Notes: generated from the sequence alone by a model not told the origin. DNA of 32,000 nucleotides from Candidatus Tremblayella phenacoccinincola (GCF_009805595.3 NZ_VMQO03000001.1:30001-62000); one strand, 5' to 3'; shown: positions 1 through 32,000, counted from the stretch's first letter. Numbers and translations are program-made.

Positions 1-1026
1 GTATTTATCAAACAGCTTGCTGCTAACATTAACAACGAAAACACTAAGTTCATATTTCTTAGTAGCTCATACAAAAGGTTGATTAAGATCTTAAAAGGAA
101 GCTACTACGTAAAGAAAGCTAACGACGTTAAAGCTCTATTAAAATGCAAAATTATTGTTACAATGCAAGGCAGTGGCTACACTGATATCACACTTGCTAA
201 GCTAAGAAACCTGAATTGGGTTGGCTATTGGATTGACGCAGCGTCTTCTCTTAGAAGGTTGCTTAATGTGTGTGTAGTGTTGGACCCCGTAAACTCTAGT
301 AACATCAAAAGATCCATAGAAGCCAGCAAAAAGAGTTTCGTTGGTGGAAACTGCACCGTTAGTTTAATGCTAATGGCGTTACATAGTTTAATCAGGAGAA
401 GCAAGATGAAATGGATGTTCGTTACAACTTTTCAATCTGTTTCAGGTGCTGGCGCCAACTACGTTAAGAGCTTGCTGTTACAGATGGCAGTATTGAGTAG
501 AGTTAGGTTTAGGAATGTGATAAGCTCAAGTATTCAGTTTAGAATAAGCGACCCAAACGCAAGTGAAACTGTTGCTGGTTCAATTGTGTCTTGGATAGAT
601 GAAGAAACGAATAAGTTAGGAACGTCAAAGGAAGAGCAAAAGGGTCTTATTGAAGCTAACAGGATATTAGACTTACCAATGAAGATTCACGTTGGTGGAG
701 TGTGTGTAAGAGTTGGAGTGTTAAGATGCCATTCACAAAGCTTTCTAATTAAGGTTGAAAGAAAAATGTGTTTTGGCTGTGTTGCTGATATAATTCAATC
801 GACCAGCAGATGGGTTAAGTTATTGCCAAATAGAAAACCATACTCAAGGTTACTATTAACTCCTGAAGTTATCTCTGGGTCTTTGGTGATTGCTATTGGT
901 AGGCTAAAGAAAATGGCATTCAATAGTGGACTCCTATCAATGTTTACAGTAGGTGATCAGCTGTTATGGGGGGCTACAGAACCTATAAAGCGAACACTTA
1001 AACTCTTTTGTCCAACCACGAACTAA
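1..1026 (+). CDS. asd: aspartate-semialdehyde dehydrogenase (5' end lies outside the window)
   Basis: Frame 1 is open from nt 1 to the TAA at 1024-1026. The translation is collinear with E. coli Asd: IIVTMQGSGYT, GYWIDAASSLR, active-site FVGGNCTVSLMLM, LRCHSQSF, FTVGDQLLWGA. The Met at 79 in the ORF track is internal, because upstream in-frame residues (VFIKQLAAN..FIFLSSS) still align to Asd. Confidence 0.93.
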   Translation, partial: VFIKQLAANINNENTKFIFLSSSYKRLIKILKGSYYVKKANDVKALLKCKIIVTMQGSGYTDITLAKLRNLNWVGYWIDAASSLRRLLNVCVVLDPVNSSNIKRSIEASKKSFVGGNCTVSLMLMALHSLIRRSKMKWMFVTTFQSVSGAGANYVKSLLLQMAVLSRVRFRNVISSSIQFRISDPNASETVAGSIVSWIDEETNKLGTSKEEQKGLIEANRILDLPMKIHVGGVCVRVGVLRCHSQSFLIKVERKMCFGCVADIIQSTSRWVKLLPNRKPYSRLLLTPEVISGSLVIAIGRLKKMAFNSGLLSMFTVGDQLLWGATEPIKRTLKLFCPTTN

Positions 1027-1170
1027 TCATATGTTGGACCTCGTTCTTTCAGTCTACAATGCAGATGGGTGTGGTGGGTTCTGTTAGAAGTCTCAGTAGG
1101 TAAAGTAATTGACTGAGGAACCTATCCACCTGAGGTTATCGTACATCTTCTTAACAAGAGCATAACTATT

Positions 1171-4100
1171 ATGTATAGAAACGCACAAAGGTATGTACAT
1201 TTAAGGATGCATTCAGAGTTCTCAATATTAGATGGCACTATCAGGCTAAATGAAGCGTTAGAATGCGCAAAGGCAAACAGACAAGGGGCTTTAGCTTTAA
1301 CTGATCTCAATAATATGTTTGGAGCAATAAAGTTTTATAAGCTATCAAGAATTCAAGGCATTAAACCAATAGTCGGATGTAACCTATCAATTAAACATGG
1401 TAGTTCTGAAAGTAGGAACAAAAGCAATATCATTTTGCTAGCCACTAACGTACAAGGGTATCGTAATCTTTGTAAAATAGTTACTATGGCTTGGACAAAT
1501 CATAATATCAACAGCTATTCAGTTCTCGATGCATATAACATAACTCAAAGATCTTCCAGTTCAATAGCTATAGAAAGAGAATACCTGAAAGGAGAGCTAA
1601 CAAGAGGTCTCATAGTTTTATCAGGAGCAACACAAGGAAACATAGGACAGGCCATAATGGACGGAGAAATGCATGCTGCGAGAAACCTGTTGAATGAATG
1701 GTTAGAAGACTTCTCTGGTAGTTTTTATGTTGAGATTCAACGTAGCGGCCAACAAAGCGAGGAGCGTTATATAGATGGTGCAATAGAAATAGCTGTGAAT
1801 TCTAGAACACCAATCGTAGCAACACATCCAATTCAGTTTCTCAAATCAACAGACTTTCAAATGCATGAAGTCAGGGCTTGTATTTCTGAGAATAAGACTC
1901 TTTTTAATAAACAAAGAGCCAAGAAATACACATATGAACAGTATTTCAAATCCAAAAGAGAGATGTGCAGCCTATTTAAAGATATCCCTTCAGCTTTAGA
2001 AAACACTGTACTTATAGCTAAAAGATGTAACTTAACCCTGAGGTTAGGAGATATTAAGCTTCCTACTTTCCCAAAGCCTAAGGGTATTTCAATTAAAAAG
2101 CTTTTCGTAGTTTCAGTAGTTAATGGTTTAAAAAACAAGATCCAAAAGAAACGAATAAGAATTAAAAGTGCTTCTTTCGTTCAATACTTTAACAGAATAG
2201 TATTTGAGTTCGAAGTAATACTTAGAATGGATTTCTTAGGCTATTTCCTGATAGTTTCAGACTTTGTATGTTGGGCTAAGAGAAATGGAGTTCCAGTGGG
2301 TCCAGGTAGAGGGTCTGGTTCAGGTTCTCTAATAGCATTCATTTTAAATATTACCGATGTTAACCCAATTCAGTACGGACTGCTGTTCGAAAGGTTCTTA
2401 AACCCAGGTCGTATAGCAATGCCAGATCTCGATATAGACTTCTGTCAAGTGGGTAGGGACAGGGTCATAAACTATGTAATGGGTCTGTATGGAAGTAACC
2501 TGGTATCACAGATCACAACGTTCGGAACATTTGCGGCAAGAGCTGCAATTCGAGACATAGGAAGAACATTAGGTTTACAGCATGTCATAACAGACAACAT
2601 TGCAAAACTCATTCCCCAAACTACTGAACAGCAACAAAAGCTTAACTACAACACACTAAAGCTTGAAACCATCGTATTGAATCCTGAAAAGCCCGAAGAA
2701 TATACACGGCCTATGGTAGGTAGTAGCGTTAGACGCTTGATTAATTTAGCAGTTAGGATGGATGGCTTAGCTAGAAACGTGGCAGTTCATGCCGGAGGAG
2801 TGTTAATATCACCAGTAAAGATTTCGATGTTCTGTCCTTTGTATTCACAAGAGGGCGAAGCCAATATATTAGTAAGCCAATTCGATAAAGATGATGCAGA
2901 GTCAGTGGGGTTAGTAAAGTTCGACTTTCTTGGACTTACAACTTTAACTGTTCTCAATAACACAGCAAGACATATTAAAGCTCTCCATAAGCTGAAGGCT
3001 TGGACATTGGAGGGCATATGTATGGAAGATATGGATTCATTTAAGCTCTTGCAAAAGTCAGATACCATAGCCATATTCCAATTTGAAAGCTCAGGAATGA
3101 AAAGGATTCTAAGAACAGCTAAACCAGATTGCTTTGAGGATATTATAGCTCTAATAGCTTTGTTCAGGCCAGGCCCTATGCATTTAATGTTCAGTTACTG
3201 CAAAAGAAAACATGGGTTGGAAAGCTCACAATACATAAACAACCGTCTGGAACCTATATTAAAAGAAACATATGGAATAATAATATATCAGGAACAGGTC
3301 ATGCAAATCGCTAGAGTTATCGGTAGATACTCACTTGCAAAAGCTGATTTACTCAGAAGAGCAATAAGTAAAAAGCAAACACTCGCAATGGAACACCACA
3401 GGCTGATCTTTCAAAAAGGTGCCAGGTGCATTGGATTAACCAACGATGAATCTAAAGCAATATTCGAACTAATGGAGAAGTTTGCTTGCTACGGTTTTAA
3501 CAAGTCTCACGCAACAGCTTACGCTATATTAGTCTTTCAGTCAGTCTGGTTAAAAGCTCACTATCCAGCTGAGTTTCTAGCTTCAAACTTAAGCTTATCA
3601 ATGCACGAAGTTAACAGGACTATCAAATTGTATAAAGACTCTTCAAATAGAAACATAGAACTCCTGAAACCAGATGTTAACAAGTCTTTTTATCAGTTTA
3701 GGCCAGTTGAGCTTGAATCCATAAAGACTATGTTCAAACCAAGCTCTAAACCTAAATATAAACCTAAAGCTATATTGTACGGACTGGGTGCGGTCAAAGA
3801 CGCCGGTAAATACGCTGTTCAAGAGATCATAAAGATTAGAGAAACCAAGGCTTTTTCAGGCTTACTTGACTTCTGTTTTAGAACTAACCGAAGAAACATA
3901 AGCAAGAAAACCATTGAGTCTTTAATAAGATCTGGCGCCTTCGATAGTTCTTGTTGTTCAATAAGAAGATGTGTTTTAATAAGAATGTTATCAGCGATTA
4001 TAAGGTATTCAGAAAGAATAAAGACATCCGTAGATATCAGCGACTTAAACCCAAACAGCGATTCCTTTGAGATTAACCTAAACAGAGCAATGAGAAAGAT

Positions 4101-4737
4101 AAGTCCAATTTGGAGTGAAAGAAGACTATTATATGAAGAAAAGAAAGCATTAGGTTTTTATCAGTCTGGACATCCATTTAAGGTATTTAAAAGTGAAATT
4201 AGAAGACTTGTTCCAAATAGCATAAGATTCTATAGAACTAGCTCTATAGGAAACCAAGCCCTCTTATGTGGCGTAGTTACCAGCTATTTCCATAAGCTAA
4301 TTAACAACAAAATCGTAGCTGTTATTCTTTTAGAAGACGACGAAGACCAATGTAGCATTTATCTCAACAGCTCAACATTACCGTCCGATGTTAAACTAGA
4401 CAAACTTATAATAGCAACTGGACTCATTCTCGCTCCAAAAGACTACGATAGATTAACCATAACAGCTGACAGAACATATAGTTTAACGTCCGAATGTATT
4501 AAACAATGTAGGCTTGTAACTCTTGTTTGTAACTTCGAATCAAACATCACAAAAGCTTCTAGCTTCTTTAAAAAACCCACAAACAACTCAGACAAACCTA
4601 TATACGTACAGATAAACCACAAGTCTAAGTCTTTTGTAATCTTAGACCATAAGTTAGCGATACCAAACGAAGCTACATTAAAAGAACTTAGGAAAGCTCT
4701 TGATAATGGAAACCTAAAAGTCAAATATATCTACTAA
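1171..4737 (+). CDS. dnaE: DNA polymerase III alpha subunit
   Basis: 1188-aa ORF. It has the PHP-domain N-terminus YVHLRMHSEFSILDG and the motifs GPGRGSGSGSLIAF, PDLDIDF, VKFDFLGLTTL, FRPGPM and GFNKSHATAYA. It is collinear with DnaE along its full length. Confidence 0.97.
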   Translation: MYRNAQRYVHLRMHSEFSILDGTIRLNEALECAKANRQGALALTDLNNMFGAIKFYKLSRIQGIKPIVGCNLSIKHGSSESRNKSNIILLATNVQGYRNLCKIVTMAWTNHNINSYSVLDAYNITQRSSSSIAIEREYLKGELTRGLIVLSGATQGNIGQAIMDGEMHAARNLLNEWLEDFSGSFYVEIQRSGQQSEERYIDGAIEIAVNSRTPIVATHPIQFLKSTDFQMHEVRACISENKTLFNKQRAKKYTYEQYFKSKREMCSLFKDIPSALENTVLIAKRCNLTLRLGDIKLPTFPKPKGISIKKLFVVSVVNGLKNKIQKKRIRIKSASFVQYFNRIVFEFEVILRMDFLGYFLIVSDFVCWAKRNGVPVGPGRGSGSGSLIAFILNITDVNPIQYGLLFERFLNPGRIAMPDLDIDFCQVGRDRVINYVMGLYGSNLVSQITTFGTFAARAAIRDIGRTLGLQHVITDNIAKLIPQTTEQQQKLNYNTLKLETIVLNPEKPEEYTRPMVGSSVRRLINLAVRMDGLARNVAVHAGGVLISPVKISMFCPLYSQEGEANILVSQFDKDDAESVGLVKFDFLGLTTLTVLNNTARHIKALHKLKAWTLEGICMEDMDSFKLLQKSDTIAIFQFESSGMKRILRTAKPDCFEDIIALIALFRPGPMHLMFSYCKRKHGLESSQYINNRLEPILKETYGIIIYQEQVMQIARVIGRYSLAKADLLRRAISKKQTLAMEHHRLIFQKGARCIGLTNDESKAIFELMEKFACYGFNKSHATAYAILVFQSVWLKAHYPAEFLASNLSLSMHEVNRTIKLYKDSSNRNIELLKPDVNKSFYQFRPVELESIKTMFKPSSKPKYKPKAILYGLGAVKDAGKYAVQEIIKIRETKAFSGLLDFCFRTNRRNISKKTIESLIRSGAFDSSCCSIRRCVLIRMLSAIIRYSERIKTSVDISDLNPNSDSFEINLNRAMRKISPIWSERRLLYEEKKALGFYQSGHPFKVFKSEIRRLVPNSIRFYRTSSIGNQALLCGVVTSYFHKLINNKIVAVILLEDDEDQCSIYLNSSTLPSDVKLDKLIIATGLILAPKDYDRLTITADRTYSLTSECIKQCRLVTLVCNFESNITKASSFFKKPTNNSDKPIYVQINHKSKSFVILDHKLAIPNEATLKELRKALDNGNLKVKYIY

Positions 4738-5077
4738 AAGCCTGAGTCTTTAAATTCAATTCGCTGTTGAATAAAGAGTCCAAAGAATAAAAGCTCCTTA
4801 CATCAACCTTCATAATATGAACTATAAAAGAACTACAATTTACTACATGCCACTGCTTACTACTTTGTGTTACGAATGCTGAAGAACCATACAAACCTTT
4901 GAATAACCCATGTATTTCCTTAGCAACGCCTCTAATGTGAACACTCGATGTACCTTCAGTCACTATGGTATAAACATGATTCAACTTAAAGTCCGAGTAT
5001 ATTTTGGTGTTTACAGTTTTTAGTTTGTATGTTGTGTATACGATTTTTAATATAAGCTCTACATCACACATTCTCAC
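4721..5077 (-). CDS. rsfS: ribosomal silencing factor RsfS (YbeB/iojap family)
   Basis: 118-aa ORF. TIVTEGTSSVHIRGVAKEI and QWHVVNCSSFIVHIMKVDVRSFYSLDSLF align with E. coli RsfS (CTGTSSRHVMSIADHV and [29 protein letters not shown]). The SD-like GAGGTGA lies just upstream of the ATG. A C-terminal extension of about 15 aa overlaps the dnaE 3' end by 17 nt, with the two genes convergent. Confidence 0.8.
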   Translation of the reverse strand: MRMCDVELILKIVYTTYKLKTVNTKIYSDFKLNHVYTIVTEGTSSVHIRGVAKEIHGLFKGLYGSSAFVTQSSKQWHVVNCSSFIVHIMKVDVRSFYSLDSLFNSELNLKTQAFSRYI

Positions 5078-5373
5078 CTCAGGTTCTGTATTCTAAACCC
5101 AATACAAACAGTCTACATCGCTAGTTGTTTATTGTTTTGACTTAGCTTAAAACAGATATAGAGAAACAGGTTTAGTAAGTAATCATAACAGCAATCACAT
5201 AACGCTCGTTTAATAATATAAAGACAGCTGGTTCTCAACAAGATATATAGATAATATTAGTTATTTAGTTGGTAGTTTGGTTCTGTGGAACAGCTATATA
5301 GTTGTATAAGAAGTTATGGAGGTTAACTTATGGCTATTGGTTTATGATATGATGATGTTGCTGCTGAAATGCT

Positions 5374-6783
5374 ATGCTGTTCATATATAACACATTAACT
5401 AATTCTAAAGAGCTTTTTAGAACTACTAAACCTAACTTAGTAAATATATATATATGCGGAGTTACAACATATGATCTATGTCATTTAGGGCATGGACGTA
5501 CGTTTGTAGCTTTTGATATTATTATTAGATATTTACGTCTTTGTGGTTATAAGGTTAATTATATTCGGAATATTACTGATATTGATGATAAAGTTATATC
5601 TAAAGCATTTAAAACTGGAGTACAAAGTAAGAACTTAAGTAAAAGTATGATAACGGAAATGTATAAGGACTTTAAGATAGTTAATGCTTTGCAACCTAAC
5701 CATGAGCCTTGTGCTACTAAAACCATAAAACATATCATTGACTATGCTTTTATGTTAATTAAAAAGAAATATGCTTATCTCAATACCAATGGAGAAGTGA
5801 TATATTCAGTTAAAACTACTAACAGCTACGGTTTATTATCTCGACAGCCAATTAAATATCTTAATGTAAATAAGCTTAAAAACCTTAATAATAAGCGCAG
5901 CTATAATGACTTTGTTTTGTGGAAAAAGCCTAAACCTGGAGAACCAAGTTGGGTTTCACCTTGGGGTTTTGGACGGCCTGGTTGGCATATAGAATGTTCA
6001 GCTATTAGTCATAAATATTTAGGAGCTAACATTGAAATCCATGGTGGAGGTTTAGACTTAGTTTTTCCCCACCATGAGAATGAACTAGCCCAAGCTACTA
6101 GCGCTTTTGATGGTTCTTGTGTTAGAATATGGATGCATACTGGCATATTAGTATTAAATAATGAAAAGATGTCGAAAGCATTAAATAACTCAATTAAGCT
6201 TCGAGAAGTCCTTAAATACTATGATGTCGAAACTCTAAGGGTTTTATACCTAGCTAGCCATTATAGAAACCCATTAGATTTTAGTATTAAAAAGATAAAA
6301 GAATCATTTATTTCTCTAAAGCGTTTATATACTGCACTTAGAGGTACTAACTTTAGAATAAAAGCAGAACTTAAAGAACTTAAAGAAGATATGCTTTCTA
6401 GGTTTTTTAATGCTATGAATGATGACTTTAATACTCCAAAAGCTTTTTCAATATTATATTCTATTGCTAAAAGGATAAACTATTTTAAACATAGGAACTT
6501 AATATTAGCGAATAAACTAGCAGCTAAATTACGGGGTTTAGGTAATATCTTAGGTTTATTAAGCTCCGAGTCTATTGAGCATGTCTTTGAGGAACATGTT
6601 CAAGAAAAGATATTAAATAAAGCAAAGGTTAAGATAATTGAAATAGAAAAACTAATTAAGAAACGTAAGCTAGCTAGATGTAATAAACAATGGCTTTTGG
6701 CGGATAATATAAGAAATAAGCTATATGATAGAAACATAGCTCTTGAAGATGAAAAAGAAAAAACAATATGGAGGTTTAAATAG
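5374..6783 (+). CDS. cysS: cysteinyl-tRNA synthetase
   Basis: 469-aa ORF with the HIGH motif (CHLGHGRTF) and the KMSKS motif (KMSKAL). It also has WGFGRPGWHIECSA and HGGGLDLVFPHHENE. It is very close to E. coli CysS, including LKRLYTALRGT and the C-terminal TIWRFK. The gene is very AT-rich. Confidence 0.96.
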   Translation: MLFIYNTLTNSKELFRTTKPNLVNIYICGVTTYDLCHLGHGRTFVAFDIIIRYLRLCGYKVNYIRNITDIDDKVISKAFKTGVQSKNLSKSMITEMYKDFKIVNALQPNHEPCATKTIKHIIDYAFMLIKKKYAYLNTNGEVIYSVKTTNSYGLLSRQPIKYLNVNKLKNLNNKRSYNDFVLWKKPKPGEPSWVSPWGFGRPGWHIECSAISHKYLGANIEIHGGGLDLVFPHHENELAQATSAFDGSCVRIWMHTGILVLNNEKMSKALNNSIKLREVLKYYDVETLRVLYLASHYRNPLDFSIKKIKESFISLKRLYTALRGTNFRIKAELKELKEDMLSRFFNAMNDDFNTPKAFSILYSIAKRINYFKHRNLILANKLAAKLRGLGNILGLLSSESIEHVFEEHVQEKILNKAKVKIIEIEKLIKKRKLARCNKQWLLADNIRNKLYDRNIALEDEKEKTIWRFK

Positions 6784-6808
6784 GTTAGCTTAATAAAAGC
6801 CAATAAGT

Positions 6809-6882
6809 GCGCCCTTAGTTCAGTTGGACAGAACAACGGCCTTCTAAGCCGTAGATCACTGGTTCGAGCCCAGTAGGGCGTG
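6809..6882 (+). tRNA. tRNA-Arg (anticodon UCU)
   Basis: Hand-folded cloverleaf. Acceptor GCGCCCT/AGGGCGT, D arm GTTC-AGTTGGACA-GAAC, anticodon arm ACGGC-CTTCTAA-GCCGT, T arm ACTGG-TTCGAGC-CCAGT, discriminator G. CCA is not encoded. It resembles E. coli argU. Confidence 0.9.
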
Positions 6883-6919
6883 CTTTCTTATATTAAACCA
6901 TATAACCACTAAACACCTT

Positions 6920-7360
6920 ATGTATATAACCACTATAATAAATAATAATAAGATACCCTTTCAATATTATGTTGAGAAAAGACTTGAAGCCGGTATTTCA
7001 TTACAAGGGTGGGAAGTTAAGGCTCTTAGGTTTAAAAAGATAAGCATTAACAATAGCTATGTTTATATCAAGGAAAGTGAAGCATACATATTTGGTGCTA
7101 GCTTTCAGCCTTTATATTTTATATCATGTTCAGGCATAAACTATGAACCATTAAGAAACCGTAAGCTGCTTTTAAATAAAAAAGAGATTGTTCTTTTATA
7201 TGGCTCAGTATATAAACATAAGGGTTATTCTATAGTAGTTGAATCTTTATATTGGAAAGGCTCTTGGTGTAAAGCTAGTATAGTTTTAGTTAAAGGTAAA
7301 AAAGACTACGATAAAAGAAATGATTTAAAAAAGAATAGCTGTTTGTCTAATGCATACTAA
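6920..7360 (+). CDS. smpB: SsrA-binding protein SmpB
   Basis: 146-aa ORF. EAGISLQGWEVKALR, RNRKLLLNKKEI, GYSIVVESLYWKGSWCKASIVLVKGKKDYDKRNDLK is collinear with E. coli SmpB. Confidence 0.93.
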   Translation: MYITTIINNNKIPFQYYVEKRLEAGISLQGWEVKALRFKKISINNSYVYIKESEAYIFGASFQPLYFISCSGINYEPLRNRKLLLNKKEIVLLYGSVYKHKGYSIVVESLYWKGSWCKASIVLVKGKKDYDKRNDLKKNSCLSNAY

Positions 7361-7427
7361 CCTTTTCATATTCAGTTATTGGGAGGAATCTGAAGAGACA
7401 TGTGTTATATAGAATTGTCCGCCTATA

Positions 7428-7982
7428 TTAAAAGAAGTCCTCCCATATAGCTATAGCTTTTCCTATAAGTAACTTCCCTGGAAAAGCACCCCAAAAACGA
7501 CTATCATAGCTTCTAATTAAATAATCACCTATTACAAAATAGTTAAGACTTGGTAAACACCAAACGTATATATTATTACATATGTCTTTTTTAATATGAA
7601 TGTTTAATCTATTATGAATGCTTAAACTACTATAGATATAACTCTTTTGGTCTTTAAGCTTTTGTATATAACTATTTATTATTCCTTTATAGTTTATGAA
7701 TATCTTTTTAATATGCTTATTATATATTACTTTATCACCAGGTAACCCTAATATCCTTTTGATATAGCTAGAAGCTTTAAAAGGATATTTTACTACAACT
7801 ATAGTTCCTCGCTTCTTAATAAAACCATAAGAAAGCTTTTTAACTACAGCTAAACCTCCAGAGAATAATGTTGGAACCATTGACTTTGAGTTAATACAGC
7901 ATAGTTCAAATATAAATGCATTTACTGAATATAATAATATAATAACTATCATAGACCTTATTATGTTAAGCTTATTATTCAT
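7428..7982 (-). CDS. lepB: signal peptidase I (shortened)
   Basis: 184-aa ORF with an N-terminal TM segment. It carries the catalytic Ser box SKSMVPTL, the Lys box YIKRILGLPGDKV and the GDYLIRSYDSRFWG box. It is much shorter than the 324-aa E. coli LepB. Confidence 0.9.
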   Translation of the reverse strand: MNNKLNIIRSMIVIILLYSVNAFIFELCCINSKSMVPTLFSGGLAVVKKLSYGFIKKRGTIVVVKYPFKASSYIKRILGLPGDKVIYNKHIKKIFINYKGIINSYIQKLKDQKSYIYSSLSIHNRLNIHIKKDICNNIYVWCLPSLNYFVIGDYLIRSYDSRFWGAFPGKLLIGKAIAIWEDFF

Positions 7983-23532: not shown

Positions 23533-23543
23533 AGGAGAACTAC

Positions 23544-24132: not shown

Positions 24133-24162
24133 TTCTTCTTTAAGAGTAACCCAAGAATGTTA

Positions 24163-24996
24163 TCAGGTTTGGATACATCCTAGGTGTTTACATATTGCTT
24201 TCACGATTGAGCATTCGTTTAAAGTGTATATATGAAGATCTGATACCCCAAGACTTATTAAGCTCTCACATAGCTTTAGGATAACTTCAACTCCAAACTC
24301 AAGAACTGAACAGTTTCTGTCCTTCAGTGCTTTTAACCTTTTGATTATCCAATATGGAATATCTGCACCACATAGCTCCGAAAAGTATAACAGCTTTTCA
24401 TAACTAATAATTGGCATTATGCCTGGGGTGATCGGGGTTTTAACGCCTAACTTATAAACATCCTCCAACAGCTTGTAATATGAGTCTACGTTATAGAAAT
24501 ATTGGGTAATTGCTGAATCTGCGCCAGACTCAACCTTTCTTACAAAGCTTTTAATATCTTTTAGAATAGACGGGTTGCCAGGGTGTCCCTCTGGATAAGC
24601 GGCTACGTCAATATAGAAGAACTCTCCATACTCGCAACGAATCAGCCTAACTAAATCGCTAGCATCTGTTGAGAACGAGTCTTCTTTCAAACCTGGGGTA
24701 TCACCCTTTAAAACTATAATATGTCTAATACCAACTTCTTTGTAAAAGCTTAGCTCTTTCAAAAGCTCTTGTTTTGGAGAAGAGCAAAGCATATGCGGGA
24801 CAACCGAATTAAAGAACCGCCTCATACTTACTATCAGATCCAATTGGTTTCTTTTAAAGCTGCTACGACTATAGGTTATTGAGACAAACTTTGGTAAAAC
24901 ACAAGCCAACTCCCTCTGTACTTGCAACAGCTTTAAGAAGCCATAGTACGTTTTCGGAGGTGAGAACTCAAAAGAAATGTTAGGTAAGTTCTTCAT
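24163..24996 (-). CDS. metF: 5,10-methylenetetrahydrofolate reductase
   Basis: 277-aa ORF. ISFEFSPPKT, FVSITY, IRHIIVLKGD, DVAAYPEGHP, SAITQYFYNVDSY, ITPGIMPI and HIYTLN are collinear with E. coli MetF. Confidence 0.93.
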   Translation of the reverse strand: MKNLPNISFEFSPPKTYYGFLKLLQVQRELACVLPKFVSITYSRSSFKRNQLDLIVSMRRFFNSVVPHMLCSSPKQELLKELSFYKEVGIRHIIVLKGDTPGLKEDSFSTDASDLVRLIRCEYGEFFYIDVAAYPEGHPGNPSILKDIKSFVRKVESGADSAITQYFYNVDSYYKLLEDVYKLGVKTPITPGIMPIISYEKLLYFSELCGADIPYWIIKRLKALKDRNCSVLEFGVEVILKLCESLISLGVSDLHIYTLNECSIVKAICKHLGCIQT

Positions 24997-25080
24997 TAAC
25001 TTCTAACAAAAGCATATAGCACCTGTCTGGGTTTGAACCATCGATGAACTACAGGTGTTCAATACAAGGAAACATCAGGT

Positions 25081-25356
25081 CTAAGAAACTGTTTTTCTAC
25101 TGCATGCTCCTAAGTATACAGGGTTTTTAAAAAGGTAAACATTCAGCTGTTCATAGAGAAACCATCTAACTTTTGGGTTTGATAGATTCAGTCTATATTC
25201 GTTAATGAGTGTTGTTTGTTTTCTTAGCCAGTCGTTCCAAGCTTTCTTAGACACATTCTTATATATTTTAACCCCAAGCTTATTAGAAAAAGGAGGAATA
25301 TCAAACCCATCCAACACAGCACCAACTTTAACACAAAATACTCTACGCTTATACAG
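25081..25356 (-). CDS. yggX: Fe(II)-trafficking protein YggX (start codon uncertain)
   Basis: KIYKNVSKKAWNDWLRKQTTLINEYRLN aligns with E. coli YggX [28 protein letters not shown]. Homology (KRRVFCVKV versus SRTIFCTFL) continues upstream of the first canonical start (GTG at 25317). It runs up to a CTG at 25354-25356, directly after an in-frame TAA (25357-25359). Confidence 0.8.
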   Translation of the reverse strand: MYKRRVFCVKVGAVLDGFDIPPFSNKLGVKIYKNVSKKAWNDWLRKQTTLINEYRLNLSNPKVRWFLYEQLNVYLFKNPVYLGACSRKTVS

Positions 25357-25440
25357 TTAGTATATATTTGTTAGTTCTTTGTAGTTGAATACGGCTGCTA
25401 GGAAAGGTTCCATTGAGTTTCCGTTGAGACGGACGGTGTG

Positions 25441-25557
25441 TATAACATTCTATATATCCATATATCATTCCATATATATCCATATAACATCATTCATCTT
25501 CCCTTCCATCATACCACCATACTTATACTTCCATACAACCACACCCATACTTCAACA
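25441..25557. repeat. G-free A/T/C low-complexity spacer
   Basis: 117 nt without a single G. It is built from CCATATAT/TCCATA-type motifs followed by CATCTTCCCTTCCATCATACCACCATAC. The two ORF-track entries here (25385-25582 and 25438-25629) are translations of this tract. Confidence 0.85.
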
Positions 25558-25726
25558 GCCTCTGTGTCTATGGTTAGTTTAAACACACTATTCACTATTG
25601 AAGCAGCTCCTTTCTTAGAATCAGAATAGTCAAGCATTTGGGGGTTTCTATAGTGGTTTGTGGTTCATTTGCATTTTAACTGAAATGTAGTTCATAGTGG
25701 TCCTTATATATATACACATAGAGACT

Positions 25727-26830
25727 ATGAATAACTCATTTGGCAAGCTGGTTTCCATTTCCATATTTGGAGAGTCTCATGGTTGCATTGTAGGCTGTTT
25801 AGTTGATGGCTGTCCTTCTAGTTTGCCTTTATACAATAATGAGGTACAACAAGAATTGGAACGTAGGAAACCAGGCAAGTCAGCGTACGTTTCACAAAGA
25901 TCGGAAAAAGACCTTGTTAAGATTCTATCAGGAGTTTTTAACAACAAAACAACTGGCAGTCCTATAACATTGGTAATCGAAAACACTGACTGCAGGAGCA
26001 ATGATTACTTCAACCTTAAAGAAACATTCAGACCAGGCCACGCGGACTATACATATGCACAGAAATATAGAAATAGAGACTATAGAGGCGGTGGAAGAGC
26101 GTCGGCTAGAGTAACAGCTGCTGTTGTTGCAGGCGGTGCTGTTTCTAAGAAGTGGCTAAGGCTTAAACATGGTTCTCAGGTTAAAGGATATCTCAGTGAG
26201 TTGAAGGAAATAAAAATACCTTTTATCCATTGGACATACGTTAATAACAACTGCTTTTTTAGTCCTAACATTAGCATCATAAATACCTTGACCAAACAAC
26301 TGCGTCTTCTGATCAAAGCTGGTAACTCTGTAGGCTCCCGTCTAGCTTTAATAATGACCAAGATACCAATTGGAATAGGGGAGCCGCTTTTTAATAAGTT
26401 AGATGCTAGCATAGCATGTGGTTTAATGAGTCTTAATGCCGTTAAGGACGTAGAAATAGGTTCAGGTTACCTGAGTTCATCAAAAACTGGTTTAGATCTA
26501 AACGACGCTTTAACTCCAGATGGTTTTTTAAGTAATCATTCAGGCGGCATATTAGGAGGAATTTCAACAGGAAGTGATGTAATAGTTTTCATAGCTATAA
26601 AACCAACGTCTAGCATTTCCTTGTTCAAACGATCTGTAAGTGACAGCAATAGGCCAACATATGTAAGAACTAAAGGAAGGCATGATCCATGTATTGGAAT
26701 AAGAGCAGTTCCAGTCGCAGAGGCAATTGTGTCCGTAATTATCATGGACTTTATACTACAAACCCATTTTAGTGAAGATTACCAAAATAGCAACTGTCAC
26801 CTTGTGCATCCAAAGGCCTATTTGTACTAA
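25727..26830 (+). CDS. aroC: chorismate synthase
   Basis: From the ATG at 25727, MNNSFGKLVSISIFGESHGCIVGCLVDGCPS aligns with E. coli [32 protein letters not shown]. Other matches are RPGHADYTY, GGGRASARVTA, SNHSGGILGGIS and GRHDPC. The ORF-track start at 25697 adds 10 non-homologous residues. Confidence 0.95.
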   Translation: MNNSFGKLVSISIFGESHGCIVGCLVDGCPSSLPLYNNEVQQELERRKPGKSAYVSQRSEKDLVKILSGVFNNKTTGSPITLVIENTDCRSNDYFNLKETFRPGHADYTYAQKYRNRDYRGGGRASARVTAAVVAGGAVSKKWLRLKHGSQVKGYLSELKEIKIPFIHWTYVNNNCFFSPNISIINTLTKQLRLLIKAGNSVGSRLALIMTKIPIGIGEPLFNKLDASIACGLMSLNAVKDVEIGSGYLSSSKTGLDLNDALTPDGFLSNHSGGILGGISTGSDVIVFIAIKPTSSISLFKRSVSDSNRPTYVRTKGRHDPCIGIRAVPVAEAIVSVIIMDFILQTHFSEDYQNSNCHLVHPKAYLY

Positions 26831-26895
26831 CTCTCACAACTCATATCAAAGAATGTTAAGGTCACTCTAACTAACTTTTAAATAGAGGGGGCAGC

Positions 26896-27468
26896 ATAAA
26901 CATAACCATAAACATAACCATAAGCATAACTTCAACTAAACGAATTAATGGTGAAGCCTCAAACCCCAAAGTAAGAATAATTGGACTAAACAAAGAACTA
27001 TTAGGAACTATGAATTTAGAAGAAGCCTTAAGCATATCCAAAAGCTTAAAAACAGATCTTATTGAGACATCACCTAACAGCTTTCCTCCAGCTTGCTGCC
27101 TAATGGATCACGGTAAGTTCAAATATAGATCTTCAAAGAAAAAACAAAAAGATAAGGCTAAGCAAAAGACCATGCAAACAAAAGAAGTTAAACTTACTCC
27201 TAATATTGGCAAGAAGGACTACAGAATTAAAATGCGTCAGTTAGTCAGTTTCTTAGAGAAAGGAAACAAAGTTAAGGTCATTGTTAAATTCAAAGGACGA
27301 GAGATATGCTTTAAAAACATGGGCTTTGAGATTCTCAAAGAAGTCCAAACCGATCTTTCAGGCCTCTGTACAGTTGAACACTCTAAAAGAAAGGAAGACA
27401 AATGCATATCAATGTTCCTAACAACATTAAAACAAAGAAAGCCTAAACAACAAAAGTGGAATGCATAA
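26896..27468 (+). CDS. infC: translation initiation factor IF-3, non-canonical (ATA/ATT) start
   Basis: Homology to the IF-3 N-terminus (KRINGEASNPKVRIIGLNKELLGTMNLEEAL versus E. coli [31 protein letters not shown]) lies upstream of the first ATG (27010). There is no ATG, GTG or TTG in frame between the TAA at 26872-26874 and 27010. The ATA at 26896 follows the SD-like GAGGGGG (26885-26891) by 4 nt, and an ATT at 26944 is an alternative. Non-canonical start codons are the known autoregulatory feature of infC. Confidence 0.88.
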   Translation: MNITINITISITSTKRINGEASNPKVRIIGLNKELLGTMNLEEALSISKSLKTDLIETSPNSFPPACCLMDHGKFKYRSSKKKQKDKAKQKTMQTKEVKLTPNIGKKDYRIKMRQLVSFLEKGNKVKVIVKFKGREICFKNMGFEILKEVQTDLSGLCTVEHSKRKEDKCISMFLTTLKQRKPKQQKWNA

Positions 27469-27661
27469 AACGAAACCCAAACCCAACAGAAGCGCAGCCA
27501 AACGCTTCAAGTGTAATAAAACCGGATGTATAAAGAAACGTAAGGCTTTTAGAAACCATTTGTTAACCAAGAAGCGATCTAAGAACAAAAGGAGATTACA
27601 CCAGGGCTCCTATGTTCATATATCAGACTCCGAAAGGATTAGACGCATGTTGTGGCAATAA
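27461..27661 (+). CDS. rpmI: 50S ribosomal protein L35
   Basis: 66-aa basic ORF. KPKPNRSAAKRFKCNKTGCIKKRKAFRNHLLTKK is an L35 pattern. It overlaps the infC 3' end by 8 nt. Confidence 0.93.
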   Translation: MHKTKPKPNRSAAKRFKCNKTGCIKKRKAFRNHLLTKKRSKNKRRLHQGSYVHISDSERIRRMLWQ

Positions 27662-28032
27662 TGGAGGCTACTTTGACCAGAGTAAAAAGAGGGGTAACTT
27701 CCCGTAGTAGACACAAGAGACTTGTTAGGTTAGCTAAAGGATTTAGGAGTAGGAGAAAGAATGTATATCGAGTTGCTAAACAGGCAGTAATGAAGTCTCA
27801 GCAATATTCATACATTGATCGCAAAAAGAGGAAAAGAAGCTTTAGGTCTTTGTGGATTATGCATATCAATATAGCAAGCCGTAAATATGGTATAAACTAC
27901 AGTACGCTAATGAAGCAACTAAGACTCAACGGAATTGAAGTTAACAGAAAACATCTTTCAGGTCTTATCGAATACGACAGTAGCATATTTAAAGGGATAG
28001 TTGGAAGCGTTTTTAACTCAGTTAGGCTTTAG
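27661..28032 (+). CDS. rplT: 50S ribosomal protein L20
   Basis: TRVKRGVTSRSRHKRLVRLAKGFRSRRKNVYRVAKQAVMKSQQYSYIDRKKRKRSFRSLWI is collinear with L20. The ATG at 27661 overlaps the rpmI stop (TAATG). The GTG at 27652 from the ORF track is an alternative start. Confidence 0.93.
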   Translation: MEATLTRVKRGVTSRSRHKRLVRLAKGFRSRRKNVYRVAKQAVMKSQQYSYIDRKKRKRSFRSLWIMHINIASRKYGINYSTLMKQLRLNGIEVNRKHLSGLIEYDSSIFKGIVGSVFNSVRL

Positions 28033-28060
28033 AATCCTTTTAAGCGAGAGCTAGTAGTAT

Positions 28061-28477
28061 TTGTATTATATATATTGCTTAGCATTCCAAATAATACCTG
28101 GTATAACAACAGCAATAGGTTCTACCATAGGAATACCATTAACTCATAGAAACTACTCTAATAATATAGCTTTTACAACAGGGTCTATATCCTATAAAAA
28201 CAAACCTAACTGGAATCTAGAACTAAATAAAAAGCAAACAATAATAATGTATATGTATGCAAGTAATATAACTAAGCTAAAAGAAAAGCTATTAAAAAGT
28301 AGCTTCTCAAATAAAACTCCAATAGCAATAATTACATCAAGCACTAATAAAAACCAAAAGATAATAATAAGCAACATAAAAAGCATAGAAAGCTTATCAA
28401 ATAATAATACAACACCCTCTATATTGATAATAGGAAATATAATAAAGCTATATAGAGATATTACTACATTCAATTAA
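28061..28477 (+). pseudogene. 5'-truncated remnant of uroporphyrinogen-III C-methyltransferase (CobA / CysG C-terminal domain)
   Basis: IIPGITTAIGSTIGIPLTHRNYSNNIAFTTGS…KQTIIMYM…TPIAIITSSTNKNQKII…TPSILIIGNIIKL aligns with the last roughly 135 aa of E. coli CysG ([34 protein letters not shown]…KQTLVFYM…MPVALVENGTSVKQRVV…SPALIIVGRVVAL). The N-terminal half of the methyltransferase domain, including the GAGPGD motif, is absent. TAG TAG stops lie at 28051-28056 and rplT ends at 28032. Confidence 0.75.
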
Positions 28478-28560
28478 TAAGAGCATAAGTCCCTTCTAAA
28501 CCTATAACAATCCCCCCCCCCTTCTCTAACAGCTAACACCTAAAAAGGAAAAGAGCTAGA

Positions 28561-28665
28561 ATGTCTTTATGGGACGGCCGCTTCAAAGAAAAGCTAAACA
28601 TAATGTTTGAATACTTTAACAACTCCTTAAAAACCGATTATAGGTTCATAACGAAATATAGCTAA
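28561..28665 (+). pseudogene. 34-codon 5' stub of argininosuccinate lyase
   Basis: MSLWDGRFKEKLNIMFEYFNNSLKTDYRFITKYS* aligns with the E. coli ArgH N-terminus [33 protein letters not shown]. The rest of the gene is missing, since tRNA-Trp starts 32 nt downstream. Confidence 0.5.
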
Positions 28666-28696
28666 CCATAAGTCTATTGCATTATAATTAGGAAAG

Positions 28697-28770
28697 CAGG
28701 GATAGAGAGTCTCGAACTCCCAACAGCTGGTTTTGGAGACCAGTACTCTGCCAAGTTGAGTTATATCCCT
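28697..28770 (-). tRNA. tRNA-Trp (anticodon CCA)
   Basis: Minus-strand sequence AGGGATA-TA-ACTC-AACTTGGCA-GAGT-A-CTGGT-CTCCAAA-ACCAG-CTGTT-GGGAG-TTCGAGA-CTCTC-TATCCCT-G. It is very similar to E. coli trpT. Confidence 0.92.
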
Positions 28771-28772
28771 TG

Positions 28773-28846
28773 CGGTGCGGGCGAGTTTCGAACTCGCCAC
28801 CTTCGGCGTGACAAACCGATATTCTAACCAACTGAACTACCGCACC
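28773..28846 (-). tRNA. tRNA-Asp (anticodon GUC)
   Basis: Minus-strand sequence GGTGCGG-TA-GTTC-AGTTGGTTA-GAAT-A-TCGGT-TTGTCAC-GCCGA-AGGTG-GCGAG-TTCGAAA-CTCGC-CCGCACC-G. It lies 2 nt upstream of tRNA-Trp on the same strand. Confidence 0.92.
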
Positions 28847-29122
28847 TATAGACTTAAGCAGTTTCTTACTCTAGTCAAAGGACTAGTTTATAAACCGAAT
28901 TAAGCAGAATCTATTATGTGGTTCTAACTGGTATTATATTGTTGTTAAGAAGAATGCTTTTTCTAGAAGGCTGGTTGGATTCTAGAATGGTTAGCAGGAC
29001 AAGCTATTACCAGTTCTAGGAAAGGCTACTCCTCCTACCAACCACCCACATATACAATACTACCCCCACATAGCTAAACCTCTTGTAGTTCCTTAAAGAA
29101 AAACTAATCTAATAAACCCATA

Positions 29123-30541
29123 ATGCCTATGAAAATAATAACTCGCTTTGCCCCAAGTCCTACTGGATATGTTCACATTGGGGGAATAAGAACTGCCTTA
29201 TATTCCTGGCTATATACTCGTAGTAAAAAAGGAAAGCTTATTTTAAGAATAGAAGATACTGACTCTTCACGTTCAAATTCCAAATACATTGACTCAATAG
29301 CTGCTGTAATGAAATGGTTAAGTTTAGATTGGGATGAAGGTCCATACATACAAACAAAAAGACTAAACAGATATAATGAATATGTCTCTAAATTGATAAA
29401 TGCTAACTTAGCTTACAAATGCTACTGTACAAAAGAAAGACTAGAAAGTCTACGTAAGTCTCAATTAGCTCAAGGAATAAAACCAAAATATGATGGCCAT
29501 TGTCGTAATAAATATGTATACTATAATGACTCAAAAGAATATGTTATAAGGTTTAAAAACCCAATAAATGGAACTACCTCTTTTTATGATAATATACGCG
29601 GTTCTATTTCTTTTAGAAACGAAGAGTTAGATGATCTTATAATAAAACGAACTAATGGCCTACCTACATATAACCTATGCGTGGTAGTAGATGACTTAGA
29701 CATGGAGATAACACACATAGTTAGAGGAGAAGAACATATTAACAATACGCCCCGTCAAATAAACATACTAAAAGCCCTTAACTCACCGATTCCAATATAT
29801 ACGCATGTGCCAATAATATTAGGTAATTCTGGGAAAAAGCTATCTAAAAGGGAACAAGCTACAAACGTATTAGAATACAAACATAATGGGTTTTTACCAG
29901 AAGCAATAATAAATTATATTGTTAAGCTAGGATGGACATACGGCAATAAAGAACTAATTAACATTAACGAACTAAAAGCTATATTCAATACTAAGTCCAT
30001 TAGAAAGTCTGCAAGTAAGTTTGACTATGAAAAGCTACTATGGGTAAATCAACAATATATTAAAAACACTTCAGATAAGTATATTATCGAATATCTATAT
30101 GTAAGCTTGAACAAAAGCAAATACAAACCTAATATTAAATATGGTTCTATACTAAAAAGCCTAATAAGACTATATAAAACTAGATGTAATACATTAAACC
30201 TAATAACAGAAAGCTTCTACCAATTCTATATAGATTCTAGTAGTTCTAATGAAACCTATATAAACTATATAGAAGCTGCTTCTGTTTTAGATATCGTAGA
30301 AGCCATATATAAAGAAATATCAATAACAAAAAGCTGGTCCATAAATATGATAACTGAAATAATACAAAAGATATCAATAAGCCTAAATATAGCTGTCTGT
30401 AATATAGCTATGCTATTAAGAATAGGCTTATTAGGAAAAGCTGTATCACCAGGAATAACTCAAGTCATAAACATATTTAATAAAGAGTCTCTACTAAAAC
30501 GTATAAAAAAGGTAATTACAATGCTTAAATATAACTATTGA
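29123..30541 (+). CDS. gltX: glutamyl-tRNA synthetase
   Basis: 472-aa ORF. (MP)[74 protein letters not shown] and KLSKR (KMSKS-type) are near-collinear with E. coli GltX. The true start may be the second ATG at 29129. Confidence 0.96.
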   Translation: [472 protein letters not shown]

Positions 30542-30712
30542 AACAGTTGTTAGCTATTAACTTCTTTCAGACATAATAGGGGTTTCAACTAGAACTATAA
30601 CATAATTACATACTATAACAAAATAGATTAGAAACAGCTAGTCAAAAGCAGGTAACAGATAAACCCCAAACGCCAATACATATGAAAGTGTTAATATACA
30701 TATGCTTCTCTC

Positions 30713-30747
30713 TTCTCTATTCTCTATTCTCTATTCTCTATTCTCTT
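30713..30747. repeat. 7-bp tandem repeat (TTCTCTA)x4 plus a partial unit, inside a G-free tract
   Basis: There are four perfect TTCTCTA units at 30713-30740 and a degenerate fifth. 30705-30749 contains no G. The repeat lies in the convergent gltX/ileS spacer. Confidence 0.85.
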
Positions 30748-30894
30748 TAGCAGATGTCAAACCAGTAACAATGTTAAATAGAGCTCGAGCTCCTACTACA
30801 TGGTACCCCAATAGAATCCTAGAAAGGTTTCGCTGGAGACGCTAGCCTATCAAGAGAGACCATTTATTCCCCTCCCCCCACAATATATTAACTA

Positions 30895-32000
30895 CTAAAT
30901 AAGCATACGCACTTCTCCAGTACCAATAATATTAGAGACACACCTATCACATATCTTAGAACCTGTAGTATAATGCCAACACCTAGAACATCTTATTCCA
31001 CTAGCTTTCTTAATAGAGACTTTTAAATACTCAAAAAGGTTACTTTGTATTGCTGTTACGTCAGCTTCATTATAACTTAATATTTCTACTTCAGAAACCA
31101 ACATCAAAAAAGATAACTCATTTCCTAACTTCAGTAACTTGAAAGCTAACCCATCGTCTACATACAGAACCCCACATACTTCTAAAGAACTACCAATAAA
31201 CCCCCGTAATCGCTCTAACTCAATAGCTTTGTTAACTTCACTTCGAACTTGCATCATCATATACCAATAAGCCTTATCCATATTTAAGCTAGCAAAAGAT
31301 AAGGAGTTGTACCACTCTTCAGCATACACATATTTAGCTCTTTCCCCAGACAAATAACCCCATATCTCATTAGCAGTAAAAGAAACTATAGGAGAAACCC
31401 AAAGAACCATTGCTTCTAAAATATGATATAAAGTGGACTGACAGCTTCTTTGTGCAATACTTTTAACATTCGATGTGTAATTACGATCTTTAACAACATC
31501 TAAATAAAAAGATCCTAACTCTACTGAACAAAACTGCATAATTCGTTTAATAACAATATGAAACTGATATCTATTAAAAGCATCTATAATATCTTTTTGA
31601 AGAACATATGAACAGCTTATTATCCATTTATCCAAAGCTAACATACTTTTAAAAGAGATACTATTGTGGTTTGGATGAAACCCATTTAGATTAGCTAATA
31701 AAAACCTAATAGTATTTCGAATACGTCGATAGATATCAGAAGAGCGTTTAATAGTTTCTTCAGAAAACTGAATCTCTTTAGTAAAATCATTTAAAGCTAC
31801 CCAAATACGAAATACATCAGCTCCATAGGTTTCAATTAGATTCAATGGGTTAATAACATTTCCAATAGACTTAGACATTTTAAACCCATCAACATCTACA
31901 ACAAAACCATGCGTTAATATTTCTCGATATGGTAATTCTTCATTTATTATATTAGATAATATTAAAAGAGCCATAAACCAACCTCGATATTGATCAGAAC
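30895..32000 (-). CDS. ileS: isoleucyl-tRNA synthetase (C-terminal ~368 codons; 5' part outside window)
   Basis: The frame stays open to nt 32000 (…SDQYRGWFMALLILS aligns with E. coli GSDQHRGWFMSSLMIS). It has the KMSKS motif (FKMSKSIGN), RRIRNTIRFLLANLNGF and the C-terminal zinc-finger region CSRCWHY…CDRCVSNIIGTGE. The Met at 31974 in the ORF track is internal. Confidence 0.96.
   Translation of the reverse strand, partial: SDQYRGWFMALLILSNIINEELPYREILTHGFVVDVDGFKMSKSIGNVINPLNLIETYGADVFRIWVALNDFTKEIQFSEETIKRSSDIYRRIRNTIRFLLANLNGFHPNHNSISFKSMLALDKWIISCSYVLQKDIIDAFNRYQFHIVIKRIMQFCSVELGSFYLDVVKDRNYTSNVKSIAQRSCQSTLYHILEAMVLWVSPIVSFTANEIWGYLSGERAKYVYAEEWYNSLSFASLNMDKAYWYMMMQVRSEVNKAIELERLRGFIGSSLEVCGVLYVDDGLAFKLLKLGNELSFLMLVSEVEILSYNEADVTAIQSNLFEYLKVSIKKASGIRCSRCWHYTTGSKICDRCVSNIIGTGEVRMLI

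Follow-up and report, generated by a model that had tools for sequence, protein, structure and literature searches.

Candidatus Tremblaya phenacola, a mealybug symbiont that NCBI places under Betaproteobacteria (taxid 1010676), includes strains whose genomes combine genes of two proteobacterial classes. The chimeric betaproteobacterial/gammaproteobacterial (beta/gamma) genome of strain PPER, from Phenacoccus peruvianus, was described by Gil et al. 2018 as ‘an evolutionary beta-gammaproteobacterium collage’ (as cited in PMC5664097 and PMC11014885). Strain PSOL, from Phenacoccus solenopsis, is also reported as a beta/gamma chimera (Bai et al. 2024, PMC11014885), and chimerism in T. phenacola is already cited as established (bioRxiv 10.1101/2024.10.23.619971). 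Strain PAVE of the same species is described as purely betaproteobacterial, with 170.8 kb at 42.2% guanine plus cytosine (GC) (PMC11014885).

Here, we describe a stretch of 32,000 nucleotides (the window, numbered 1 to 32,000) along which gene blocks of two kinds alternate: type A, with beta affinities, and type B, with gamma affinities. It is highly probable that the window is a 32-kb piece of the chimeric Candidatus Tremblaya phenacola genome, from PSOL or a near-identical strain, in which beta blocks and Sodalis-allied blocks meet at junctions older than the split between PSOL and PPER. The classes involved are those of Tremblaya princeps, a beta, and of the Sodalis-allied gammaproteobacteria nested in it (Moranella and others), and translation and amino-acid synthesis are likewise divided between the partners. 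In that system, however, the two genomes occupy separate cells and separate replicons, whereas the window carries both gene sets on one contig.

Two compositional classes in four alternating blocks

Mean GC is 0.370 in block A1 (1-5077), 0.308 in B1 (5374-10936), 0.381 in A2 (11225-28032) and 0.320 in B2 (28061-32000), and 35.9% over the whole window. An earlier reading of the sequence (the original prediction) had proposed these four alternating blocks, and their positions are backed by block GC, by change points found without annotation, by GC at third codon positions (GC3) and by codon usage. Binary segmentation of GC in 100-bp bins placed its first three change points, in order, at 10,300, 5,000 and 27,800, and the observed gain was reached by 0 of 500 permutations for each; the fourth and fifth change points bound a low-complexity spacer at 16.9-18.4 kb. 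A GC profile in 500-bp windows and clustering by codon usage, the checks proposed with the original prediction, bear out the blocks, and the change points fall near the junctions. The step in GC is real, though smaller than first supposed: it amounts to ~7 points (37-38% versus 31-32%), not the hand-counted 35-48% versus 23-30%.

The contrast is clearer at third codon positions than in total GC. In a set of 18 type A and 8 type B genes, GC3 of the genes of at least 300 nt runs from 0.310 to 0.390 in type A and from 0.209 to 0.245 in type B, two disjoint ranges (Mann-Whitney p = 8e-6). Leave-one-out log-likelihood on synonymous codons assigned 26 of 26 genes to the block originally predicted for them, and unsupervised Ward clustering on relative synonymous codon usage matched that block for 20 of 22. 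The combined fraction of lysine, asparagine, isoleucine, tyrosine and phenylalanine is 0.41 in type B proteins versus 0.31 in type A proteins, in keeping with the enrichment of the first four residues that had been noted by eye. Type A and type B each have genes on both strands, so that strand bias does not explain the steps, as was argued from the outset. Each compartment still bears its own ancestral base composition and codon usage.

Ancestry of the two gene sets

Database-wide protein searches lead to a different proteobacterial class for each block type. Outside Tremblaya, the best matches of the type B protein LeuS are Sodalis praecaptivus, S. pierantonius, S. glossinidius and other Sodalis at ~46%, followed by Dickeya, Yersinia, Serratia and the mealybug symbiont Doolittlea; among the 120 matches listed, all that are named are gammaproteobacterial and nearly all belong to Enterobacterales, the few others being Orbus and Gilliamella. 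A separate scan of genome contigs, made with peptide patterns specific to this LeuS, gave only a LeuS from Clostridia, at 30% identity. The named matches of the type A protein CarB, at 51-53%, are all Burkholderiales (Mycetohabitans, Burkholderia, Polynucleobacter, Robbsia, Cupriavidus, Pandoraea and others). Those of AroA, also type A, are Paraburkholderia, Sulfuritortus, Sulfuriferula and Methylophilaceae at 36-40%, all Betaproteobacteria, with two more labelled only ‘Pseudomonadota bacterium’. With LeuS nearest to Sodalis and Enterobacterales, CarB to Burkholderiales and AroA to Betaproteobacteria, the proposed enterobacterial character of type B and betaproteobacterial character of type A hold, and the LeuS, CysS, IleS and L20 motifs quoted in their favour are found in the translations. 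These sequence comparisons support two ancestries in the window.

Further proteins were scored against E. coli K-12 and one Burkholderiales locus per protein, namely CarA, CarB, RlmE, DnaQ (in two pieces), DUF2059, AroA and RpsA. Each of these seven type A products (eight query fragments) scores higher with the Burkholderiales locus than with the E. coli K-12 orthologue, with small margins for CarA and CarB. RlmE, for instance, scores 94 bits to Mycetohabitans and 75 to E. coli, and 116 to a reduced beta relative represented by a metagenome fragment (L012, described below). For the type B protein GltX, the PDB sequence 8i9i, which we take to be from E. coli, scores 476 bits and 4g6z, presumably from Burkholderia thailandensis, 375 bits, a gap of ~100 bits. 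Published class calls agree with the blocks (PMC11014885), with dnaE, carA, carB, pheA, aroA, metF, aroC, infC and rplT called beta and cysS, smpB, lepB, leuS, gltX and ileS called gamma.

Gene identities were taken from NCBIfam, Pfam, ARAGORN and Rfam. The type B blocks contain the following features:

5374-6783, plus strand: cysS, type B (gamma); TIGR00435 at 504 bits, GC3 0.219; gamma in PMC11014885 Table S5
6809-6883, plus strand: tRNA-Arg(TCT), in a type B block; ARAGORN and Rfam; 83% to an E. coli tRNA-Arg; same place in PPER
6920-7360, plus strand: smpB, type B (gamma); NF003843 at 145 bits, 46% to E. coli SmpB; gamma marker peg34 (PMC11014885)
7428-7982, minus strand: lepB, a short signal peptidase I, type B; TIGR02227 at 102 bits, GC3 0.211; gamma in PSOL (PMC11014885)
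8061-10571, minus strand: leuS, type B (gamma, Sodalis-allied); database-wide protein search
10751-10938, plus strand: tRNA-Leu(GAG) and initiator tRNA-Met, type B; ARAGORN; 94% to PPER
28061-28477, plus strand: cysG/cobA C-terminal fragment, type B; NF007922 positions 324-449 of 450, GC3 0.209
28696-28846, minus strand: tRNA-Trp and tRNA-Asp, type B; ARAGORN
29123-30541, plus strand: gltX, type B (gamma); PDB sequence scores; gamma marker peg60 (PMC11014885)
30895-32000, minus strand: ileS, C-terminal part of a gene that leaves the window, type B; Pfam Anticodon_1 and tRNA-synt_1, 50% to E. coli IleS; gamma marker peg61 (PMC11014885)

The type A blocks contain the following protein-coding features:

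79-1026, plus strand: asd (aspartate-semialdehyde dehydrogenase), type A; NF005144 at 324 bits, GC3 0.377; listed open reading frame short at its 5' end
1171-4737, plus strand: dnaE, type A (beta); Pfam DNA_pol3_alpha, PHP and finger domains, GC3 0.330; beta marker peg31 (PMC11014885 Table S1)
4721-5077, minus strand: rsfS, type A, the last gene ahead of junction 1; TIGR00090 at 42.8 bits (under cut-off), GC3 0.319, codon log-likelihood +4.5
11225-11857, minus strand: rlmE, type A; TIGR00438 at 92 bits (under cut-off)
11854-15027, minus strand: carB, type A (beta); database-wide protein search
15031-16137, minus strand: carA, type A; TIGR01368 at 386 bits; beta in PMC11014885 Table S5
16215-16885, plus strand: dnaQ, split in two (16215-16466 and 16622-16885); divergent orientation relative to carA, shared with Burkholderiales
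18745-19548, plus strand: DUF2059 protein, type A; PF09832; 39% to the DUF2059 gene of the Paraburkholderia cluster upstream of pheA
19552-20592, plus strand: pheA, divergent in sequence, type A; weak chorismate mutase and prephenate dehydratase matches; beta in PMC11014885 Table S5
20598-21908, plus strand: aroA, type A (beta); database-wide protein search
21973-23532, plus strand: rpsA, type A; NF004954 at 581 bits; 493 bits to Paraburkholderia versus 433 to E. coli
23544-24132, plus strand: rpsP (23544-23789) and rplS (23779-24132), type A; TIGR00002 and TIGR01024
24163-24996, minus strand: metF, type A; TIGR00676 at 251 bits; beta in PMC11014885 Table S5
25081-25317, minus strand: yggX-like Fe(2+) trafficking protein, type A; PF04362 at 81 bits; also in PPER and a Logan contig
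25697-26830, plus strand: aroC, type A; NF003793 at 391 bits; beta in PMC11014885 Table S5
27010-28032, plus strand: infC (27010-27468), rpmI (27461-27661) and rplT (27652-28032), type A; TIGR00168, TIGR01032 and the list of open reading frames; peg57 (IF3) and peg58 (L20) serve as beta markers (PMC11014885)

Gene order in the two block types

Type A gene order is a thinned-out version of the order in Burkholderiales. Paraburkholderia sacchari has gyrA, DUF2059, serC, pheA, hisC, tyrA, aroA, cmk, rpsA and ihfB, of which the window keeps DUF2059, pheA, aroA and rpsA. The Mycetohabitans order is dnaQ (opposite strand), rnhA, three genes, carA, carB, greA, two genes, rlmE and ftsH, and in the window the split dnaQ and carA likewise diverge, with carB and rlmE after carA. 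E. coli differs, with caiF after carAB, rlmE 3.3 Mb away beside ftsH, and pheA far from aroA. The argument that type A synteny is a beta arrangement and not an enteric one was correct, because the window matches the beta orders and not those of E. coli.

The fragment L012 (JGI metagenome 3300052410, 12,226 bp) has dnaQ (minus strand), carA, carB and rlmE directly adjacent. Its products are 56% (CarB), 47% (CarA) and 33% (RlmE) identical to those of the window, nearer than free-living Burkholderiales (CarB 52-53%). The fragment is compact, with a uniform ~45% GC (44-48%), and represents a reduced betaproteobacterial genome, possibly that of another Tremblaya-related symbiont of insects. Both L012 and T. 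phenacola PAVE are non-chimeric and share the beta backbone with the window, but neither has the gamma blocks.

The type B genes cysS, smpB, lepB and leuS, together with leuU and metY, are scattered in E. coli. Enteric remnants are nonetheless present among the type B tRNAs: tRNA-Leu(GAG) lies upstream of the initiator tRNA-Met, oriented as in leuU...metY, and the Asp and Trp tRNAs are adjacent. Their identity to the E. coli genes is 78-84% for Leu (leuU), 82% for fMet (metY), 83% for Arg and 75% for the Asp-Trp pair. The original description of these tRNAs as nearly identical to those of E. coli therefore overstates a similarity of 75-84%, whereas the Asp-Trp adjacency and the order leuU then metY are indeed as in E. 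coli.

Junctions shared with strain PPER

Three junctions separate the blocks:

5078-5373, no strand: junction 1 spacer, between beta rsfS and gamma cysS; PPER MKGN01000001.1 aligns with the two flanks and with a portion of the spacer
10939-11224, no strand: junction 2 spacer, between gamma tRNA-fMet and beta rlmE; CT-rich tract on the plus strand
28033-28060, no strand: junction 3, between beta rplT and the gamma cysG fragment; in PPER MKGN01000008.1 rplT is followed directly by the same TP_methylase fragment, and blastn is collinear across

PPER contig MKGN01000001.1 carries, in order, tRNA-Met, tRNA-Leu, leuS, lepB, smpB, tRNA-Arg, cysS, rsfS, dnaE, asd, leuB, leuD and leuC, and shows the same GC step as the window. 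Its last ~90 bases, past tRNA-Met, align with the 3' end of rlmE, and junction 2 is therefore common to both strains. A second contig, MKGN01000008.1, is collinear with window positions 18136-28616 (tmRNA, DUF2059, pheA, aroA, rpsA, rpsP, rplS, metF, yggX, aroC, infC, rpmI, rplT and the cysG fragment); since it runs from rplT into the cysG fragment, junction 3 is common to both strains as well. These alignments place both gene sets on one DNA molecule with reproducible junctions.

The two compartments are also about equally diverged between the strains. Differences from PPER at four-fold degenerate sites amount to 0.206 in type A (1265 sites) and 0.234 in type B (394 sites), and GC at these sites is 0.25 and 0.12, respectively, in both strains; PPER has the same two GC3 classes as the window. 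Because four-fold-site divergence is about equal in both compartments, the joins would be older than the strain split, and all three were probably in place in the common ancestor of the window strain and PPER. At the protein level, LeuS, CysS and LepB (gamma) show 72-74% amino-acid identity between the strains versus 78-90% for beta genes, at similar four-fold divergence. This lower conservation of gamma genes in the present sample is opposite to the genome-wide trend of Bai et al. (PMC11014885).

A repeat common to the three junctions, as a recombination scar, was searched for and none was found; the only similarity was of low complexity, between the junction 2 spacer and the 17-18 kb spacer. 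An origin of junction 2 by homologous recombination within the run rlmE-ftsH-folP-glmM-secG-leuU was considered and rejected, as order and orientation do not fit. E. coli has the whole run, whereas the Burkholderiales locus has only rlmE to glmM and then phosphate-transport genes. Junction 2 is collinear with neither parent, because the tRNAs of the window are convergent with rlmE and in reversed order, with metY nearer rlmE than leuU.

Directly after rplT, the C-terminal third of cysG/cobA stays open in both strains, the fragments of the window and PPER being 80% identical in amino acids. At other places in the PSOL and PPER genomes, the published tables list split cysG genes (PMC11014885).

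Strain identity

LeuS of the window is 100% identical to KAH0998307.1/WP_159128769.1, the leucine--tRNA ligase of Candidatus Tremblaya phenacola on an 87,910-bp contig, and CarB likewise matches, at 100%, a T. phenacola protein whose contig is also 87,910 bp long. PPER, which had been named as a precedent, is thus the right species and a different strain. With PPER orthologues (GCA_002682985.1) at 71% for LeuS and 88% for AroA and DNA at 80-87%, PPER itself is ruled out as the source of the window. PPER shares with the window the three junctions, the local gene order and the two GC3 classes; insertions, one of them the CT-rich tract of junction 2, distinguish the spacers of the two strains, and the PPER contigs end where the window goes on.

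In the PSOL numbering (PMC11014885), the genes of this region are peg30 (asd), peg31 (dnaE), peg33 (cysS), peg34 (smpB), peg35 (lepB), peg36 (leuS), peg39 (carB), peg40 (carA), peg47 (pheA), peg48 (aroA), peg52 (metF), peg56 (aroC), peg57 (infC), peg58 (rplT), peg60 (gltX) and peg61 (ileS), and the gene order of the window from asd to ileS is identical. For carB there is a PSOL entry and no PPER entry (PMC11014885), and no PPER protein appears among the CarB matches listed in the database-wide search. PSOL and the window are thus alike in species label, peg30-peg61 order and carB; PSOL genome GC is 34.8% (PMC11014885) versus 35.9% for the window. Because of the shared order and the presence of carB, the window most probably represents PSOL or a near-identical strain, by sequence a sister to PPER and not a new case.

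A Logan contig (L004, SRR13503347, 7670 bp) is 98.1% identical to window positions 17939-25453 (7.5 kb); near variants of the strain therefore exist. Its source is a strain or host population close to that of the window yet distinct from it, and ARAGORN calls an 89-nt tRNA-Gly(TCC) at positions 105-193 of the contig that is not called in the window.

Origin of the mosaic

Two ancestries, two composition classes, shared junctions and equal synonymous divergence are shown by the present analysis; the route by which they came together we infer from published accounts (PMC5664097, PMC11014885). Type A blocks descend from a betaproteobacterial Tremblaya ancestor allied to Burkholderiales and supply ribosomal proteins, IF3, DnaE, carAB and the genes for aromatic, methionine and lysine/aspartate-branch biosynthesis. 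Type B blocks descend from a Sodalis-allied enterobacterium and contribute four aminoacyl-tRNA synthetases, five tRNAs, SmpB and a signal peptidase. In the merger, the genome of a Sodalis-like co-symbiont would have recombined with that of Tremblaya; redundant copies would then have been lost, and the survivors shuffled into blocks of a few kilobases.

Three other explanations can be set against this beta/gamma merger. Ordinary heterogeneity within a genome of single ancestry, caused by expression level, strand or local mutation bias, could be invoked for the GC steps, given that total GC differs by only ~7 points and that tRNA and low-complexity stretches add local noise. The best matches of the two block types nevertheless fall in different proteobacterial classes (LeuS versus CarB and AroA), both types use both strands, and highly expressed genes (for ribosomal proteins and aminoacyl-tRNA synthetases) occur in each class, which leaves this explanation with next to no probability. 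The alternation might also be an assembly chimera that joins contigs of co-resident beta and gamma symbionts, since mealybugs of the other subfamily carry two separate symbionts and the published PSOL and PPER assemblies are fragmented, in 7 and 23 contigs. However, the PPER assembly, which a different group produced from a different host species, contains all three junctions with homologous sequence on each flank, and the published PSOL assembly is a hybrid Unicycler assembly with PacBio, although it may not be the same assembly as the 87,910-bp NCBI contig. Mis-assembly of two co-resident symbionts, which had been named as the outcome that would overturn the chimeric interpretation, is excluded for practical purposes because three identical chimeric joins stand in independent assemblies from two host species. 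Bai et al. 2024 likewise used PSOL-PPER synteny against mis-assembly (PMC11014885).

A more serious but still unlikely alternative to one whole-genome fusion followed by loss and shuffling is serial horizontal transfer, in which Tremblaya took up genes from Sodalis-like co-symbionts on many separate occasions. The gamma blocks are small here (5.6 kb and at least 3.9 kb), they join genes scattered in E. coli, and no long collinear gamma segment lies in the window. Against repeated transfer, ~45% of PSOL genes are gamma-derived and trace to one clade sister to Sodalis, and the gamma set includes informational genes that are rarely transferred (PMC11014885, PMC5664097). Enteric order remnants (leuU then metY, and the Asp-Trp tRNA pair) persist, and the two compartments differ from PPER to a similar degree at synonymous sites, in agreement with one old event; equal divergence at four-fold sites is compatible with one fusion but not decisive.

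Several points count against the reading of the window as a piece of the PSOL-type chimera formed by merger. A length of 32 kb is too short to separate fusion from many transfers. Database-wide searches covered three proteins (LeuS, CarB and AroA), one of them type B, and the other assignments come from composition, single-reference comparisons and published tables. Support for the junctions comes from comparison of assemblies, and that for the PSOL assignment from gene order, carB content and accession type. The gene beside junction 1, rsfS, is too short and divergent for a firm class assignment, so its placement is weak. Finally, published tables disagree on the origin of asd, which is gamma in PSOL and beta in PPER (PMC11014885).

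The discordant asd calls are probably due to the closeness of its scores, only 13 bits apart: PDB sequence scores for Asd (1nwc 255, 3uw3 247 and 1brm 242 bits) do not separate beta from gamma, and those for L20 are likewise close and do not separate them either. Codon log-likelihood for asd is +34.8 toward type A, in line with its GC3. The order leuC-leuD-leuB-asd is, we presume, the beta and pseudomonad arrangement. In PPER, asd follows leuC-leuD-leuB, and PSOL numbers these genes peg27-peg30 (PMC11014885). Composition and gene neighbourhood favour a beta origin of asd, contradicting the published PSOL call.

Further features of the window

Several features had no place in the original prediction, among them the split dnaQ, rpsP, yggX, rpmI, the DUF2059 gene and two described below:

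18308-18601, minus strand: tmRNA (transfer-messenger RNA) gene, within a type A block; Rfam RF00023 at 95.8 bits and ARAGORN
16920-18000, no strand: low-complexity spacer, ~1 kb of many short tandem arrays

The two dnaQ pieces match positions 1-77 and 138-229 only of the dnaQ_proteo model and have the same relative place and orientation in L006 and L012. Because the middle of the gene is gone, dnaQ of the window, which would encode the proofreading subunit of DNA polymerase III, is probably a pseudogene; L012 has an intact dnaQ of 239 residues at the corresponding position. PheA is so divergent that tblastn against the Paraburkholderia and E. coli pheA genes gave no match at E = 1e-3. Its PPER orthologue carries CM_2 and PDT, and the 82% identity between the two suggests that a very divergent PheA is retained.

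The tmRNA tag predicted by ARAGORN, ANKKRFKLTSNDSCYTLEQRIRL, has 23 residues and lacks the usual ALAA end. It is conserved in PPER (ANKKRFKLVSNDSCYTLEQRNRV) and in the Logan SRR13503347 contig; the DNA of the window strain and PPER is ~87% identical in this region. In comparison with E. coli ssrA, the match of the tmRNA is confined to the 3' tRNA-like end (71%). The only smpB is gamma-derived and, unlike in E. coli, has no ssrA beside it. A cross-class hybrid system of ribosome rescue, in which a beta-block tmRNA would work with an enterobacterial SmpB that has lost its own ssrA, is a tentative and rather doubtful suggestion from these gene positions.

The 16920-18000 spacer is G-rich with almost no C up to ~17290 and then C/T/A-rich with almost no G, its GC skew passing from +0.33 to -0.96. 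Because PPER contig MKGN01000008.1 starts about there, this tract may break short-read assemblies. In the junction 2 spacer, positions 11047-11210 hold a ~130-nt tract that is CT-rich on the plus strand, with a GA-rich partner at 10982-11004. By alignment, the CT-rich tract is not in the orthologous PPER spacer; its resemblance to the tract at 17.5-17.9 kb is one of low complexity. As a separate proposal, as tentative as the hybrid rescue system, the strand-asymmetric spacers at 16.9-18.0 kb and at junction 2 could be sites of block rearrangement and of short-read assembly breaks.

Significance

The mosaic read from this window is a correct rediscovery: the blocks are confirmed as observed and their interpretation finds support, but neither is new, since Gil et al. 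2018 described the chimerism of PPER and Bai et al. 2024 that of PSOL. The present analysis makes modest additions: conservation of the joins at the nucleotide level, the equal synonymous divergence of the two compartments, the reassignment of asd and the link between the window and the second published case. Smaller additions are the split dnaQ, the unusual conserved tmRNA tag and the strand-asymmetric low-complexity spacers. Few known outcomes of symbiont co-residence are as extreme as a bacterial genome built from two proteobacterial classes. Such a genome shows that core machinery of one lineage, such as tRNA synthetases and tRNAs, can serve the ribosomes of another, a point already in print for two strains of this species.

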